From a virus, in the IMG/VR virus record IMGVR_UViG_3300045988_031704: 5,830 nt of DNA; one strand, written 5' to 3'. This document shows, piece by piece, positions 255 through 5,049 of the stretch. The translations under genes and the position numbers were made by a program. The notes under the pieces were generated by a model. It was given only the letters and a program-made list of their open reading frames with translations. It did no database searches and was not told the DNA's origin. The first letter of the stretch is position 1; every line of letters starts with the position of its first letter.

Positions 255-284
255 ATTATACTACTTGTCAATAGGTTTTTTCAA
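255..284 (-). promoter_or_regulatory. Candidate sigma70 promoter P1: TTGAAA (284..279) - 18 nt - TATAAT (260..255), reading toward the peptidase gene.
   Basis: Perfect -10 hexamer and a 5/6 match for the -35. The predicted transcription start near 248 gives a ~90-nt leader to ATG 158. Confidence 0.45.
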
Positions 285-489
285 TGATCTTGCTGTTTTG
301 TAATATATTCGTAACCTTTTTTTGCAACTCGGTTTTGCTCCTTTGTTTTGATGGCGCTTTAGCGCCTTGCCGTGCGTAGCGTATGCGGAGCTCGGCTAAT
401 CCTTTCCTTTTTAGCGCTGTGCGCGTTTTCAACACTTTCAACACTTTCAACAGGTTTTCCACAAAATGTTGCACAATACTTTTCGTCAT
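268..489 (-). CDS. Doubtful 73-aa ORF encoding a very basic protein (...KTRTALKRKGLAELRIRYARQGAKAPSKQRSKTELQKK...). It could be a J/ORF8-like DNA-binding protein. Its N-terminus is encoded by the iteron repeats (LKVLKVLK).
   Basis: ATG 489 has no convincing SD (GAAAG only). The first third of the ORF is the tandem 9-mer array, and the ORF ends inside the P1 promoter. Small Arg/Lys-rich DNA-packaging proteins are known in Microviridae. It may equally be a non-coding iteron region. Confidence 0.25.
   Translation of the reverse strand: MTKSIVQHFVENLLKVLKVLKTRTALKRKGLAELRIRYARQGAKAPSKQRSKTELQKKVTNILQNSKIIEKTY
353..366. repeat. 14-bp perfect palindrome GGCGCTTTAGCGCC. The same arms GGCGCT/AGCGCC recur at 640-645/664-669.
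   Basis: Direct reading. Confidence 0.6.
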
Positions 490-620: not shown

Positions 621-676
621 AACAAGTTATATATTATTTGGCGCTTGTGAGCTTGCGAACTATAGCGCCTAAGAGC

Positions 677-719
677 TGCGCGTGCGCGCGTGCGCGCTTC
701 GCGCGCGTGCGTACGCGCA
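677..719. repeat. GC-rich tract of about 43 nt, made of two runs of perfectly alternating purine/pyrimidine bases (677-697 and 700-719). The tract is Z-DNA prone and folds as an imperfect hairpin centred on gcgcgc-ttc-gcgcgc.
   Basis: tgcgcgtgcgcgcgtgcgcgc ttc gcgcgcgtgcgtacgcgca. The core 692-697/701-706 is a perfect 6-bp GC stem, extended by G-T/wobble-tolerant pairs. It is strikingly GC-rich against the AT-rich flanking sequence. Confidence 0.6.
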
Positions 720-738
720 GTAAAGATATATTTACTTG

Positions 739-756
739 ATAGACTGAATAGACTGA
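739..756. repeat. Tandem 9-mer ATAGACTGA x2. The flanking 11-mer TTACTTGATAG (732-742) recurs in the loop of the 780-811 hairpin (791-801).
   Basis: Direct reading: 739-747 and 748-756 are identical, and the 11-mer at 732-742 equals 791-801. Confidence 0.7.
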
Positions 757-779
757 TACATGGAGTCTTTAACGATAAT

Positions 780-811
780 AGCCCAGTACCTTACTTGATA
801 GGTACTGGGCT
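780..811 (-). terminator. Perfect 12-bp stem / 8-nt loop hairpin (agcccagtacct - tacttgat - aggtactgggct) 20 nt downstream of the rep stop. A candidate operon terminator, or a structural element of the replication origin.
   Basis: 780-791 is the exact reverse complement of 800-811. In mRNA sense the hairpin is followed by the moderately U-rich AUUAUCGUUAAAG. Confidence 0.55.
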
Positions 812-823
812 AGGTGACACCAC

Positions 824-840
824 GACACTTTTAAAGTGTC
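824..840. promoter_or_regulatory. 17-nt perfect palindrome gacacttt-t-aaagtgtc overlapping the rep (VP4) stop codon.
   Basis: 824-831 is the reverse complement of 833-840, and the rep stop TAA is at 833..831. Confidence 0.4.
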
Positions 841-1850
841 CCTCTCTTCTTCAGCTGCTTCTTTATTACTCTCTCTTTCGTTTTGCACTGTTCTGCAAAG
901 TCTGTGTTTTCGTACTTTAGTCGGTTTTCTGCGATCACTGCTGCTTGTCTGTTTTGTTTAATTCGCCACAATCTTTGTGGGTTTTCAGCTTCCATCATTT
1001 TTTCATAATAGCGTGGAATTTGTGCGCGTTTGCCGTTTGTGCATTGGATATACCCTTGCTTCCAGATTTTCGCTTTGTGTTCTTGATAGTAGCGATCTCC
1101 TAGGCCTGGTTTAAGGCTCATACATGCAAAAGGTTTTTGCTGTCCTAGATCGTAGTATACGTTTGCTTTTTGACCGTCAATTTCGTACATTTTTTTCGTG
1201 ACGTATCCCGCAACATATCTATAAGTCTCCGGTGCTGCTTGTGCTATCTGTATTTGACCCATGCCCCATAGGTCTTCAAGCCATTTACTTGTGAAATATC
1301 CGTTGTGTTGTATCTTGTACAGGTGCTTTAGATCCGTTGGTCGCCATCCATACAGTATCATATGATAATGCGGCCTTGCTGTCTGTTCTCCGTATTCTCC
1401 CGCCACAAAATAGCGTAATTTGCCCCTGTAAGCCTTTCTGAGGCGTTTTATGAGTTTTTGAACGTCAGTATATAGCAATGTTTGGACGCTTTCAGGGCGC
1501 TTCTCTCCCGGCTTCCAGACGTATTGTACTTTTCGCATGATTTCGCCTGTGTTTACTATCATGCCCGGTACATGATCATCATCATAAGTTAATGTGATAA
1601 ACCAAACTTCCTCTCTTGGATAGTCTCGTGCTTCTAATTCTATTCGTGTTGTCCAGTCCTCCCTCTGTCTGATTCTGCATCCGATACACTGCCCGCATGG
1701 TATCAACATGACATCTTTTCTATACATCAAATCTTCATATTTGAGCTGTTTCCCGCATATTTCAGAAAAGCGGGAGAGTGAATACACCCTCCCGCTAATG
1801 CTTTTATCGTTCGGGTTGTACAGCCTTATTAATGGCTTGTAGCAACTCAT
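831..1850 (-). CDS. VP4 replication initiation protein (rolling-circle Rep of Microviridae), 339 aa.
   Basis: Rolling-circle motifs are present: motif I FITLTY, motif II PHYHMILYG (HxH), motif III YRYVAGYVTKKM (catalytic Y...K). There is an N-terminal Cys cluster CGQCIGC. ATG 1850 overlaps the VP2 stop. Confidence 0.93.
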   Translation of the reverse strand: MSCYKPLIRLYNPNDKSISGRVYSLSRFSEICGKQLKYEDLMYRKDVMLIPCGQCIGCRIRQREDWTTRIELEARDYPREEVWFITLTYDDDHVPGMIVNTGEIMRKVQYVWKPGEKRPESVQTLLYTDVQKLIKRLRKAYRGKLRYFVAGEYGEQTARPHYHMILYGWRPTDLKHLYKIQHNGYFTSKWLEDLWGMGQIQIAQAAPETYRYVAGYVTKKMYEIDGQKANVYYDLGQQKPFACMSLKPGLGDRYYQEHKAKIWKQGYIQCTNGKRAQIPRYYEKMMEAENPQRLWRIKQNRQAAVIAENRLKYENTDFAEQCKTKERVIKKQLKKRGTL

Positions 1851-2710
1851 TTCAAATAATCACCCGGCTTTCGCTTTTCTCCGTAGCTTCCTGTTTTGTC
1901 TTGTGGTTTTATGCTTCTACTTTGTTCTGTGCCTTTTTCCGCCTTTGCTGTTGCATCCGTAATGGCCTTGTTTGTGTTGTTTCCTACTTCTGTAAGTGCC
2001 TTTTGCAGTCCGTATGGTGTCATGTGTGTTGTACTGAGCATTTGCTGCCAGCTTTGCGCAGCATTGTACCAGTCACTTGTACTCCAACTTGAGCTTGAGT
2101 ATGCATTCGGTACAAATCCACCGCTTCTGCTTACCCCTAGCGCGCTGCTGCTTGCAAGTCCCATGCTCGCACCGCTGATTGTTCCTGCTGATCCTCCCGG
2201 CGTGCTTGCTCCACCGTTTGAAAAAGCCAAGATTGGGTTAAGTCCTGCTTTTTTCATATCTTCAACTGCACGCTGGTATGCTGTGCTTGACATGTGTTCT
2301 TGCCATTCACGGTTTGCTAGTGCTTCTGCACTGTTGTAGTTCATTGCTACGCTGTTTTCAATGTGGTTGTATACGCCTTGCATGATTGCTTGTAAGGTGT
2401 TGTAACCCATCTGTTTAAGCATACTCTGACTGTTGTATTTACCTTGCATGGCTGCCTCTTGCCCTTGGTATGCGTATGCTTGCTTTAGCCAGTCGTTTAC
2501 TTGTTGAACGTTTGTGCCTGATTGGCTTCCGCTTTCTGAGTGCCCGCCGCCCTGGCTTATACTTCCGCCCTGGCTTTGGCTGTTACCTTCTTGTCCGTAT
2601 CCGCCAAATGCTCCGGCAATGTTTTTTGCTGCTCCGGCGAATGTTCCGATTGTATTTGCTACGTTTCCTGCTACGTTTAGTGCTGTTAAGAATCCTGATA
2701 ACGCTCCCAT
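1847..2710 (-). CDS. VP2 minor capsid / DNA pilot protein, 287 aa, with Gly/Ser/Gln-rich low-complexity segments.
   Basis: Contains the conserved gokushovirus VP2 core ...SSTAYQRAVEDMKKAGLNPILAF (the AYQRAV-DMK-AGLNP-LA motif). Its low-complexity composition and position between VP1 and VP4 are typical. The stop overlaps the VP4 start (ATGA at 1847-1850). Confidence 0.85.
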   Translation of the reverse strand: MGALSGFLTALNVAGNVANTIGTFAGAAKNIAGAFGGYGQEGNSQSQGGSISQGGGHSESGSQSGTNVQQVNDWLKQAYAYQGQEAAMQGKYNSQSMLKQMGYNTLQAIMQGVYNHIENSVAMNYNSAEALANREWQEHMSSTAYQRAVEDMKKAGLNPILAFSNGGASTPGGSAGTISGASMGLASSSALGVSRSGGFVPNAYSSSSWSTSDWYNAAQSWQQMLSTTHMTPYGLQKALTEVGNNTNKAITDATAKAEKGTEQSRSIKPQDKTGSYGEKRKPGDYLK

Positions 2711-2738
2711 TTAAAAATAGCCCGGATTTCTCCGGGCT
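2711..2738 (-). terminator. Stem-loop between VP1 and VP2: 8-bp stem AGCCCGGA/TCCGGGCT with a GAAA tetraloop in mRNA sense, followed by AUUUUUAA. A candidate leaky intrinsic terminator that could also reposition the VP2 SD next to its start codon.
   Basis: Plus strand 2719-2726 agcccgga pairs perfectly with 2731-2738 tccgggct. A U-rich run separates the stem from the VP2 ATG at 2710. The SD GGAGG (2744..2740) lies immediately 5' of the stem. Confidence 0.55.
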
Positions 2739-2748
2739 TCCTCCTTTC

Positions 2749-4422
2749 TTACAGTTTGTACAGGCCCGGCACACTGTACAGCGGCATCCGCCTTGTGGTT
2801 TTGTTTGCTACGCGGATTGCTCCGAAAAATTGGGGTTCATTTTGCACGATGAGCGTGCGCGCAATTTCGATTTTTCCTTCTTCCATCCAGTCCTGTGACA
2901 GCGTTGGTACGTTTGAATAGTTGTCAGCATAATGCCAGAAGTCCAGCGTTCCTGTTGCGTTGCTTCTCATGAGGCCAGATACCCGGTTTGGCTTCATTCT
3001 GTAGTCTGCCCATGCTTCTTGATACCCGAAGGTTTCTTCATCTGTTGCATTGCCGGTTAACATGATTTCTTTCTTTTTGACAGGCTGCTCGCCTATGTTT
3101 GCAAACTGCGGTACGTAGTAGTCAAGTCTGTCACTTCTGCTCCAGAAGCGTTCAAGTCCTTGCTGATAGCTGCGATTGTGTCGTACACAACATACACCGA
3201 TCACAAAACCGTGCTCTTCAAACGATTTGGCAAAACTGCTTTCATTGATTGGTGTTACTGACATTGCACCAGTTTCACCAATAGGCGTGTCATCTTGGCT
3301 CTGCTGTCCGCTGGTCTGCACGATTTGGTTAATGTTTACATGGTATCTGCCGCCGCCGAGGTATTCCGGCACCTGTACGGTTTTATCACTGATAACCACG
3401 TCCCATAGTGCTTGTACCTGTTCGCGGTAACGAGTGCCGCCGCGTGCCAGTGCCTCATAGTACTGCTGCACTGCTACGGCCTTTCGTAAGTCGTTGATGG
3501 TTGCTGCTGCTACACTGCTAAGGTCTGCACCTAGGTATACTACATTATGTGTCGTGTCAGTATCGTCTCCGATGGCTAAGTATGCTGATCCGGTGTTTCC
3601 ATCTTCCGCGATTGCATACAGTCTGTCCTTGACGTTGCTCGGGTTTGTGCTTCCGTCAAAAAAGCTGTTTGCATATAGTGGTGCTTTTTCGTTAAATTTA
3701 TCGTTTGTGTATCCGGAAATTCTTGCATTGCCTTGCATTGGCAGCGTAACTTCCGGCCCGCGCTGAGGCTGCGGCAGACAGCTTGTGAAGTAGTCATGGA
3801 ACTTGTTTACCGGCAACAGATTTCCGCCTTTGTACGCGTTGTTGTCTGCTTCTTGCACCCAAGTTTCATTTCCAAATTCGTACAACACGTTGCTATCGTC
3901 TGTTTTTAGCACTGCTTCGTTATTTACGTTTTCGTCTCTGAAAAATTCATTCCAGATTTTTACGTACGCTCTCACGGGCAGTGCGTTAATCGTAAACGAT
4001 TTTTTGATCTTGGTTGGTACTCCCATATAGTCTAGTATGGATCTTTCGTCTGGTTTTGGTTTGCTATCCGTTCCGTTGATTACGATTTTTGGCGTTGCGT
4101 ATTCTTTTTTTGGCATCCATGGTGTTGCTTCTACTTCTCCCATGAAGTGCTTAAAGTTGTCCCACAGAATTCTATTAGGACAGTAGAAGTAGTAGAAGTC
4201 AATGAATGCATCATCCATTACCGGGTACTTCGGTGTGCTCATGCGGATAATAGCTGAAGTATTCACGCTGAAGGTATCGCCCGGTAATACCTCGTCAACA
4301 TAAAATGGAATCAGCTTGCCAGAATCGAATGTTGTTAAGATCGTCTGGTCTCGGTTAAACCGCGTCCGGCTTGCTTTCATTTCCGGGATTTCATTAAAGT
4401 GTCTTTCATTGTTTCTATTCAC
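2749..4422 (-). CDS. Major capsid protein VP1 (Microviridae F-protein family), 557 aa from GTG 4422, or 543 aa if ATG 4380 is used.
   Basis: The N-terminal region ...MKASRTRFNRDQTILTTFDSGKLIPFYVDEVLPGDTF is the canonical gokushovirus VP1 start (RxRF...TTFDxGxLIPxxVDEVLPGDTF). The size is typical of Gokushovirinae VP1. GTG 4422 overlaps the upstream stop (GTGA) with AGGAGG 7 nt upstream. The first in-frame ATG is at 4380. Confidence 0.95.
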   Translation of the reverse strand: MNRNNERHFNEIPEMKASRTRFNRDQTILTTFDSGKLIPFYVDEVLPGDTFSVNTSAIIRMSTPKYPVMDDAFIDFYYFYCPNRILWDNFKHFMGEVEATPWMPKKEYATPKIVINGTDSKPKPDERSILDYMGVPTKIKKSFTINALPVRAYVKIWNEFFRDENVNNEAVLKTDDSNVLYEFGNETWVQEADNNAYKGGNLLPVNKFHDYFTSCLPQPQRGPEVTLPMQGNARISGYTNDKFNEKAPLYANSFFDGSTNPSNVKDRLYAIAEDGNTGSAYLAIGDDTDTTHNVVYLGADLSSVAAATINDLRKAVAVQQYYEALARGGTRYREQVQALWDVVISDKTVQVPEYLGGGRYHVNINQIVQTSGQQSQDDTPIGETGAMSVTPINESSFAKSFEEHGFVIGVCCVRHNRSYQQGLERFWSRSDRLDYYVPQFANIGEQPVKKKEIMLTGNATDEETFGYQEAWADYRMKPNRVSGLMRSNATGTLDFWHYADNYSNVPTLSQDWMEEGKIEIARTLIVQNEPQFFGAIRVANKTTRRMPLYSVPGLYKL

Positions 4423-4817
4423 TTTTCCTCCTCCTTTGTTTCAGGTTCTGCCGCTGGTTTTTCTGCTGCCTTTTTTTGCAGCTCCTCTAGTTTCATGGCG
4501 TTTACCTGTGCGGTCGCCACCATGCGGTGATACTCATGGATGTTTTGCGGGAATTCCGTAATATCCGTGTATGTACCGTTTAATGCTCCTTCTGACAGGC
4601 TATTTAGAAACTGCGGGTCAAAACTTGCTTTTCGGACAATGTTTTTGATATCACATTCATCCGCATAGCTTTCAATCTCCTGTTGGATATCGATTGGTGC
4701 AGTTTCTTGTAGTGTTTCTTCTCCTTTTTCGTCCTTCGTCCAAACGTACTGTTTTCGAAGTTTTTCTCCTGATTTAGAAAAGAAGGGCTCTCGCCCTTCT
4801 TCGTATCGTTTATTCAT
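4419..4817 (-). CDS. Acidic 132-aa protein, a candidate internal scaffolding protein (VP3-like) of Microviridae.
   Basis: SD GGGAGGG lies 8 nt upstream of ATG 4817. The protein is highly acidic with a C-terminal KKAAEKPAAEPETKEEEK tail, and sits immediately upstream of and overlapping VP1, as VP3 does in gokushoviruses. The assignment rests on size, charge and synteny rather than a recognised motif. Confidence 0.5.
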   Translation of the reverse strand: MNKRYEEGREPFFSKSGEKLRKQYVWTKDEKGEETLQETAPIDIQQEIESYADECDIKNIVRKASFDPQFLNSLSEGALNGTYTDITEFPQNIHEYHRMVATAQVNAMKLEELQKKAAEKPAAEPETKEEEK

Positions 4818-5049
4818 GCGGTTTGCCCTCCCATACCTTCTCCTTGCCGTTCGTGAACGTGCCTAGCTCGTCTTCAAACACTGCCAGCTTATAGCCGGTG
4901 TAGTCGCCGGGCCCCTGCCCAACAAACGTTTTTTCATCCTTCGCCATTACGTTGCACATACGTGCAAAGGTTGCACTATTCTTGCTCTCGCCTACCCATG
5001 CATAGCACTTTGCTACGTCATCCCATAGGCCAAAATATTCATGCTTCAT
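4810..5049 (-). CDS. Hypothetical protein of 79 aa (82 aa if GTG 5058 is used). It is a candidate VP5-like protein by position alone, immediately upstream of the VP3-like gene as in gokushovirus gene order.
   Basis: ORF MKHEYFGLWDDVAKCYAWVGESKNSATFARMCNVMAKDEKTFVGQGPGDYTGYKLAVFEDELGTFTNGKEKVWEGKPHE. Its stop overlaps the next gene's start (ATGAATAA at 4810-4817). A purine-rich AAAGGAAAGTGGA lies upstream. I do not recognise any sequence-level homology. Confidence 0.4.
   Translation of the reverse strand: MKHEYFGLWDDVAKCYAWVGESKNSATFARMCNVMAKDEKTFVGQGPGDYTGYKLAVFEDELGTFTNGKEKVWEGKPHE

Follow-up and report, generated by a model that had tools for sequence, protein, structure and literature searches.

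To our knowledge, all characterised Microviridae package the coding strand, and we know of no gokushovirus in which the origin of replication has been defined experimentally. The viral-strand origin of phiX174 is CAACTTG^ATATTAATAAC. Stable hairpins are found at the minus-strand priming sites of G4, St-1 and alpha3 (PMC13037366). An extra-stable mini-hairpin consensus, GCGNAGC / GCGNNAGC, occurs at the primase sites of these three phages, in ssiA of RSF1010 and in the N4 promoters (Kimoto and Hirao, PMC13037366). For other microviruses, too, hairpins have been put forward as minus-strand origins (PMC9865509), and microvirus hairpins as candidate minus-strand origins are a known idea. The sso elements of rolling-circle plasmids are strand-specific and host-specific, and they aid replication, at the step of lagging-strand synthesis, rather than strictly enable it (PMC5703833).

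The locus described here lies in a viral sequence of 5,830 nucleotides (IMG/VR record IMGVR_UViG_3300045988_031704), and this whole stretch is referred to as the window. The ends of the window repeat its first 55 bases, so that the gokushovirus genome it represents is complete, circular and 5775 nt long. Megablast matches it to gokushoviruses from the human and pig gut (75-85% identity). All long open reading frames (ORFs) lie on the minus strand of the window, which is therefore called the coding strand. The features that the argument needs are as follows.

167-139 and 284-255, coding strand: two near-consensus sigma-70 promoters, from a promoter scan
623-738, plus strand: predicted Y-shaped ssDNA fold, closed at its base by an AT-rich stem (623-636 paired to 724-738) and containing the 640-669 hairpin together with the GC hairpin
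640-669, plus strand: 6-bp hairpin GGCGCT...AGCGCC, directly 5' of the GC hairpin and present only in this subtype of relatives
676-720, plus strand: alternating GC hairpin, arms 676-696 and 700-720, 3-nt loop CTT at 697-699
677-697: first alternating purine/pyrimidine run, 21 nt, TGCGCGTGCGCGCGTGCGCGC
700-719: second alternating purine/pyrimidine run, 20 nt, CGCGCGCGTGCGTACGCGCA
732-742, plus strand: second copy of TTACTTGATAG, unstructured, 11 nt past the GC hairpin and before the nick-type hairpin
779-812, plus strand: perfect 13-bp hairpin with the loop TACTTGAT at 792-799, putative Rep (VP4) nick site
831-1850, minus strand: VP4 / rolling-circle Rep gene (phrog_942, E = 1e-107; GenBank annotation of relatives)
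1847-2710, minus strand: VP2
2749-4422, minus strand: VP1
4419-4817, minus strand: VP3
minus strand: VP5-like DNA-binding protein
minus strand: J-like basic peptide
minus strand: M15 peptidase, whose ORF spans the circle junction

Like the primase-dependent origins of G4, St-1 and alpha3 and the n' primosome assembly site of phiX174, the GC tract is a stable intergenic hairpin in a Microviridae genome, which is proposed here to act only when single-stranded. Its apex, GCGAAGC / GCGNNAGC, also fits the mini-hairpin consensus of the G4, St-1 and alpha3 sites (PMC13037366). Unlike the G4-type origins, which comprise two or three hairpins of mixed sequence, the tract is one 21-bp hairpin of purely alternating CG/TG without sequence homology to them, and its mini-hairpin motif is not on the strand that the wobble pairs favour but on the other. 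The host also differs from that of the G4-type phages: strong Shine-Dalgarno sequences suggest that it is probably a Gram-positive gut bacterium rather than an enterobacterium. A search of genome contigs for prophage relatives, which would give a clue to the host, found none.

The tract resembles ssoA, ssoU, ssoT and ssoW of Firmicutes rolling-circle plasmids in its strand-specific fold, in its proposed place on the displaced leading strand and in belonging to a replicon with an HUH-type Rep. The orientation specificity that marks sso elements is seen in 53 of 54 variants of the tract, in which the wobble polarity is strand-specific. However, an sso is about 160 nt long with conserved RSB and CS-6, whereas the tract has 45 nt and neither element, RSB being judged without a reference sequence. 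The sole copy of the ssoA CS-6 (TAGCGT), at 377-382, was rejected as a candidate, as it lies outside the tract and is not conserved in the relatives L041, L081 and L088. No sequence similarity to characterised minus-strand origins or sso was found. Like the intergenic hairpins of the reekeekee- and roodoodoo-microviruses, which have been proposed as minus-strand origins, the tract is conserved by compensatory changes (PMC9865509, section 3.8). Those hairpins belong to other clades and differ in sequence and composition, and neither alternation nor strand-specific wobble was reported for them. The pure CG/TG alternation, the strict strand-specific wobble and an adjoining nick-type hairpin whose orientation is opposite to that of the genes make this tract unusual. 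Searches of the literature gave no description of this tract, of a gokushovirus origin hairpin or of the ACTTGAT hairpin, and nothing on microvirus Z-DNA or on antisense packaging in Microviridae.

The alternating tract and its surroundings

A first-pass annotation had described positions 677-719 as a GC-rich tract of alternating purines and pyrimidines in an AT-rich phage genome. The alternation is confirmed as the two runs 677-697 and 700-719, which are parted by TT and contain 80-86% G+C. The G+C content of the whole genome is 44%, so that the contrast with an AT-rich background was overstated. The best 44-nt segment has 39 alternating steps out of 43, and the maximum in 300 mononucleotide shuffles was 36. 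The longest alternating run is 21 nt compared with a mean of 13.5 in dinucleotide-preserving shuffles, which reach 23 because the CG/GC dinucleotides of the tract itself are retained. The tract had also been regarded as a cluster of GCGC sites that phages normally avoid. The clustering is borne out, since 8 of the 24 sites in the genome fall within the tract, but GCGC is not avoided elsewhere (16 sites compared with about 14 expected from base composition).

When the plus strand is folded as ssDNA, the tract forms 22 continuous pairs with a free energy of -28.5 kcal/mol (z = -4.4), and the 676-720 hairpin is entirely paired once G·T counts as a pair. The minus strand forms the same stem with three internal mismatches (-22.2 kcal/mol, z = -1.65). 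The stable ssDNA hairpin that had been proposed is therefore real. The proposed gcgcgc-ttc-gcgcgc register, however, amounts to a slide of two columns and pairs 94% of cells compared with 99% for the best register, in which CTT is the loop. The annotation had missed that all genes lie on the opposite strand. The hairpin is thus best formed on the non-coding strand, which matters for the idea of an origin. The ssDNA fold of the region 600-830 has a free energy of -54.6 kcal/mol (z = -8.3), and its Y shape is predicted for this genome alone. In the predicted base stem, the conserved CAAGT at 623-627 pairs with the ACTTG of the 732-742 copy, the first one in this genome.

The tract is contained in the only stretch that lies outside the transcription unit, and this stretch is bounded by the two promoters and a terminator-like hairpin (812-779). 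The VP4 stop codon lies 19 nt ahead of this hairpin when read on the coding strand. A basic ORF of 73 amino acids (268-489, minus strand) is present in this presumed non-coding region. Relatives retain it (e.g. L013), some GenBank records annotate it as hypothetical, and it has no PHROG match. The repeat TTTCAACA, which reads TGTTGAAA on the coding strand, occurs about ten times at 427-600. The copies at 427-489 lie inside the conserved ORF, where they encode ...VENLLKVLKVLKT, and the remaining copies lie upstream of it. Such repeats could be iterons bound by Rep or a regulator. A trinucleotide repeat, (CTA/TAC)5, follows at 605-621 and is kept by relatives with small variations as GTAGTAGTAG on the coding strand, and positions 626-645 vaguely resemble a dif-like site. 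A further alternating palindrome of 14 nt, TGCACATACGTGCA, is located at 4953-4966 within the VP5-like gene, and most relatives conserve it, with the variants TGCACATGCGTGCA and TGCACATGCGCGCA.

Conservation and strand asymmetry of the hairpin

The clade of the window is isolated: 21 GenBank records share at least 60% VP4 identity, all others fall below 60%, and the nearest listed outgroup has 38%. The tract was surveyed in 93 sequences, namely the window, 12 GenBank relatives and 80 IMG/VR loci found by VP4 (89-94% amino-acid identity). Eight sequences cut at a contig end and one chimera (L022) were left out, which leaves 84 testable sequences (VP4 78-94% identical), and 54 distinct variants were analysed. 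The tract is clear in 80 and degenerate in one (L034), and these 81 have it at the same place; in each of the 12 GenBank relatives, the alternating GC tract found there measures about 41-47 nt. Absence of the tract from otherwise syntenic relatives that have no structured element in its stead had been named as a refutation of the first-pass reading. The left arm is truncated in one sequence (L031), and the tract is absent in two, L088 with a mere 5-bp hairpin at its position and L041 with no hairpin there. The tract is thus not strictly indispensable: it is either dispensable, or these contigs are defective or misassembled. The contig L022 was rejected as a tract-less relative because it is a chimera with tailed-phage genes. 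After its second TATCAA motif, it runs at 2600-4017 into portal-like and head-morphogenesis-like ORFs of a tailed phage, with the junction at a nick-like motif, and it is probably a chimeric assembly.

The tract and the nick-type hairpin are separated by a variable spacer of 5 to about 170 nt, which sometimes contains extra hairpins, and the tract always lies between the nick-type hairpin and a conserved TATATAACTTGTTGTAG block. Because the hairpin is retained while the spacing varies, the tract behaves as an autonomous module. Its right arm is more conserved than its left arm, and it contains three direct repeats of GCGCACGCG in a register of 8 and 17 nt. In L041 (~2200-2440), the module of iterons and CTACTAC...CAAGTTATATA is inverted relative to VP4. 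Inversions therefore do occur in this region.

In every variant, 17-26 pairs form a dyad without gaps that encloses a loop of 3-4 nt, and the 54 variants contain no transversion-type mismatch. In two length-matched alignments, 99.2% and 99.4% of cells are paired in plus polarity, which none of 500 shuffles matches. Changes on both sides are seen at four pairs in each alignment, including compensatory changes from G-C to A-T. When the partner is slid by two columns, pairing falls to 87-95%, so that alternation alone does not explain the conservation. Consistently, 92% of the T's on the coding strand lie opposite A, although A fills only about one quarter of the opposing positions, indicating that the two arms co-evolve. 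The hairpin is conserved by structure and not by sequence.

Such pairing is markedly asymmetric between the strands. Of the cells in the inner 18 pairs, taken across all 54 variants, 728 are G-C, 58 are A-T, 180 are A·C on the coding strand, which corresponds to G·T on the plus strand, and only 5 are G·T on the coding strand. The ratio of 180:5, or 36:1, favours the plus strand. About 81% of cells pair in the coding-strand helix, and 53 of the 54 variants are more stable in plus polarity, with a mean difference of 5.4 kcal/mol. This wobble pattern indicates selection on one single strand, DNA or RNA, that has the plus polarity of the window.

Mutation bias in the genes is too weak and inconsistent to account for the 36:1 ratio. 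In a polarised sister-pair spectrum, which was examined for a sign of single-strand DNA damage, G>A and C>T changes number 120 and 48 in VP4, 36 and 56 in VP2, and 30 and 26 in the C-terminus of VP1, so that the direction differs between genes and the sum is 186:130. The only consistent trend, on the coding sense, is an excess of C>A over G>T in VP4, VP2 and VP1 (43:6, 28:5 and 7:3; 78:14 in total), which equals an excess of G>T on the plus strand. The mirror image of this spectrum was sought in a control clade and was not seen. A mutation spectrum based on singletons was discarded, as it was noisy and contradicted by the polarised analysis.

The nick-type hairpin and the strand that may be packaged

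The ACTTGAT loop of the 779-812 hairpin matches the core of the phiX174 nick site. By analogy with the phiX174 core ACTTG^ATA, the putative nick would lie between 797 and 798, and the GC hairpin is located 77 nt 5' of it on the plus strand. In a comparison set of 206 gokushovirus genomes outside the clade, Chp2 included, 131 have a hairpin with a (Y)ACTTGAT(G) loop, and their stems are unrelated and compensated. That of Chp2 is at 2904-2941 (entry L093 2904-2941). The ACTTGAT-loop hairpin is likely to be the general Rep nick site of gokushoviruses.

In 127 of these 131 genomes, it is the coding strand that bears the ACTTGAT-loop hairpin. The non-coding strand bears it in four, of which L148, L224 and L274 are strong exceptions and L269 is a weak one. 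In the clade of the window, by contrast, the element is on the non-coding strand in every scorable member. The rare non-Watson-Crick pairs of its nick-type hairpins are G·T in 13 cases and A·C in one on the ACTTGAT strand. The nick-hairpin stems of the control clade are perfectly Watson-Crick and thus offer no wobble polarity to validate this method, and the extended nick-hairpin stems of the broad set contain 27 A·C and 19 G·T, counts that are uninformative. Alternating GC tracts occur in only two of the 206 outside genomes. That of L154 (3351-3396) is intergenic between VP2 and the J-like gene and forms a hairpin of 14+6 pairs, and that of L169 is at 866-902. In both, the T-rich, G·T-paired version lies on the ACTTGAT-bearing strand, which in these genomes is the coding strand. 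In all three lineages, L154, L169 and the clade of the window, the polarity of the tract therefore follows the strand of the nick motif and not the direction of the genes.

These observations suggest that the plus strand of the window is nicked, displaced and packaged. The position of ACTTGAT on the non-coding strand, the ratios of 180:5 in the tract and 13:1 in the nick-type hairpins, and the polarity in L154 and L169 together argue that the clade and the isolated lineages L148, L224 and L274 package a strand antisense to all their genes, on which the GC hairpin would be a strand-specific ssDNA signal. We consider this to be slightly more probable than the alternative of coding-strand packaging. 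The coding strands of L148, L224 and L274 are A-rich and T-poor (A 0.35-0.43, T 0.17-0.22). Base composition was rejected as a marker of polarity, as phiMH2K and several genomes with the ACTTGAT loop on the coding strand have a coding strand as A-rich and T-poor as that of the window.

The apex of the tract points to the strand opposite to the wobble-favoured one. On the coding strand it reads GCGAAGC, GCGTAGC, GCGATAGC, GCGGTAGC or GCGTAAGC in 51 of 80 loci, thereby matching the mini-hairpin consensus. Three observations weaken this argument. The arms end in GCG and start with C, so that any loop ending in AG makes the motif; 13 loci have AAA instead; and the plus strand carries motifs of its own at 374-391, GCGTAGC (374) and GCGGAGC (385), 4 nt apart. 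L081 and L088 have GCGCAGC at the corresponding place. In 49 ordinary gokushoviruses, mini-hairpin motifs favour the ACTTGAT strand close to the nick hairpin: within 200 nt they number 69 on this strand and 26 on the other, compared with 564 and 438 genome-wide. The region upstream of the nick hairpin is more stable than the downstream region in 39 of 49 other gokushoviruses, a comparison that is confounded by coding sequence.

Competing explanations and a candidate complementary-strand origin

The best reading of the tract is a hairpin that would act in single-stranded DNA, on the strand that is nicked and packaged. Because the substitution pattern shows single-strand selection, a complementary-strand origin, which the first-pass annotation had proposed, is the leading hypothesis, and we give a priming role in complementary-strand synthesis a rough probability of 0.4, by analogy with known origins. 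A hairpin by itself does not demand strict alternation of purines and pyrimidines, which counts against an account based on the hairpin only. The alternation may be explained as a by-product of a (CG)n-like ancestor and the purging of transversions. In such a palindrome, transitions would give tolerated G·T pairs, whereas transversions would give purine·purine and pyrimidine·pyrimidine clashes and would be purged. Five other explanations were weighed, and each of them fails to account for at least one tested feature.

An unlikely explanation, although the best placed of the five, is a non-B structure of the duplex. Under the supercoiling of the replicative form, the arms would convert to Z-DNA or the palindrome would be extruded as a cruciform, and the supercoils taken up in this way would tune the firing of the origin or the neighbouring promoters. 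The first-pass annotation had called the tract a textbook Z-DNA former, and its sequence does suit Z-DNA: two CG/TG runs of 20-21 bp compare with a threshold of at least about 12 bp of CG-rich alternation. All variation consists of transitions, so that the alternation is intact in 54 of 54 variants. Like (CG)n and (CG·TG)n plasmid inserts, the tract combines alternating CG with TG/CA over about 20 bp per arm and has AT-rich flanks. AT-rich flanks aid C-type cruciform extrusion, and those of the tract would favour it. The rough cost of the Z-DNA transition is 19-20 kcal/mol per arm compared with a gain of 20 at sigma -0.045 and 27 at -0.06, and the gain from cruciform extrusion is 23-31 kcal/mol. 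However, the Z-DNA transition is favourable only at a sigma of about -0.045 or more negative and is unfavourable at the effective in vivo value of about -0.03. Z-DNA does not need complementary arms, whereas T faces A here at a frequency of 92%, and it does not need a central loop interrupting the phase of alternation. Under any duplex-level model (cruciform, Z-DNA or bound protein), a transition in either arm changes both strands at once and yields one hairpin with G·T and one with A·C, and hence no asymmetry would be expected. Neither Z-DNA nor a cruciform predicts the 180:5 ratio, and in contrast to (CG)n plasmid inserts, whose structures form at the duplex level, the tract evolves in a strand-asymmetric and dyad-constrained manner. 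Z-DNA thus stands as a property of the sequence but not as its main explanation, since arm complementarity, the loop and the 36:1 asymmetry are left unpredicted.

Somewhat less probable still is an RNA hairpin in an antisense transcript of plus polarity, either a small regulatory RNA or a primer RNA copied from the coding-sense template. G·U pairs are acceptable in RNA, so that the wobble pattern suits a plus-polarity RNA as well as DNA, and with RNA parameters the mean free energy is -40.9 kcal/mol in the plus sense compared with -31.2 kcal/mol in the coding sense. Against such a transcript, no sigma-70-like promoter was found on the plus strand at 1-1000, the covariance models of Rfam 15 matched nothing there up to E = 10, and no T-run follows the hairpin on plus polarity. 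The neighbouring nick-type hairpin has the same polarity, for which ssDNA is the simpler explanation.

We regard as improbable a palindromic operator for a dimeric protein, such as Rep, the product of the 73-aa ORF or a host factor, or else protein binding to the three direct GCGCACGCG repeats. The dyad symmetry with its mirrored changes, the 8- and 17-nt register of the direct repeats and the better conservation of the right arm would fit an operator. However, the symmetry is broken at about 19% of positions, and the strand sense of these breaks never varies, which would not be expected for a dimer bound to duplex. A half-site of 20 bp is also unusually long.

The chance that the tract has no function and is a slippage-prone, (CG)n-derived palindrome kept by descent appears smaller again. 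Its rare natural losses and its confinement to one clade and two isolated genomes are consistent with this explanation. Yet the tract is kept in nearly all testable relatives while its flanks are reshuffled, and the compensatory changes, the lack of transversions and the strict wobble polarity argue for purifying selection. Very improbable, finally, is a terminator or insulator that stops VP4 read-through on the coding strand into the origin/promoter region: the very stable GC hairpin does lie past VP4, the last gene, and ahead of both promoters, but it lacks a T-run on either side (flanks TAAAGATA on the plus strand and CTCTTAGG on the coding strand), a terminator scan of both strands called the 779-812 hairpin nearer to the VP4 stop and not the tract, and the coding-sense transcript bears A·C mismatches, so that selection is not on that RNA.

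For the preferred priming function on ssDNA, the following mechanism may be envisaged. The plus strand, which bears ACTTG^AT in the neighbouring loop, would be nicked, displaced by rolling-circle replication and packaged. After infection or strand displacement, SSB would coat the single strand, and the very stable GC hairpin would remain folded and free of SSB. The hairpin could thereby mark a start site for host primase, a PriA-type primosome or RNA polymerase. Complementary-strand synthesis would then begin at the hairpin, as it does at the minus-strand origins of G4, St-1, alpha3 and phiX174 and at plasmid sso. Because elements of the sso type are helpful but not absolutely required, such a role fits the rare natural losses of the tract.

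In this genome, the two candidate origins are neighbours, one being the Rep nick hairpin and the other the strand-specific GC hairpin. The asymmetry of wobble pairs is a purely computational indicator of which strand exists as ssDNA, and here it is at odds with coding-strand packaging, which is assumed for all microviruses. If the plus strand is indeed packaged, 'negative-sense' microviruses would exist in a family that is described as uniformly positive-sense. Confirmation would change the assignment of strand polarity for thousands of metagenomic microvirus genomes, and it would mean that the orientation of the origin module with respect to the genes can be inverted.
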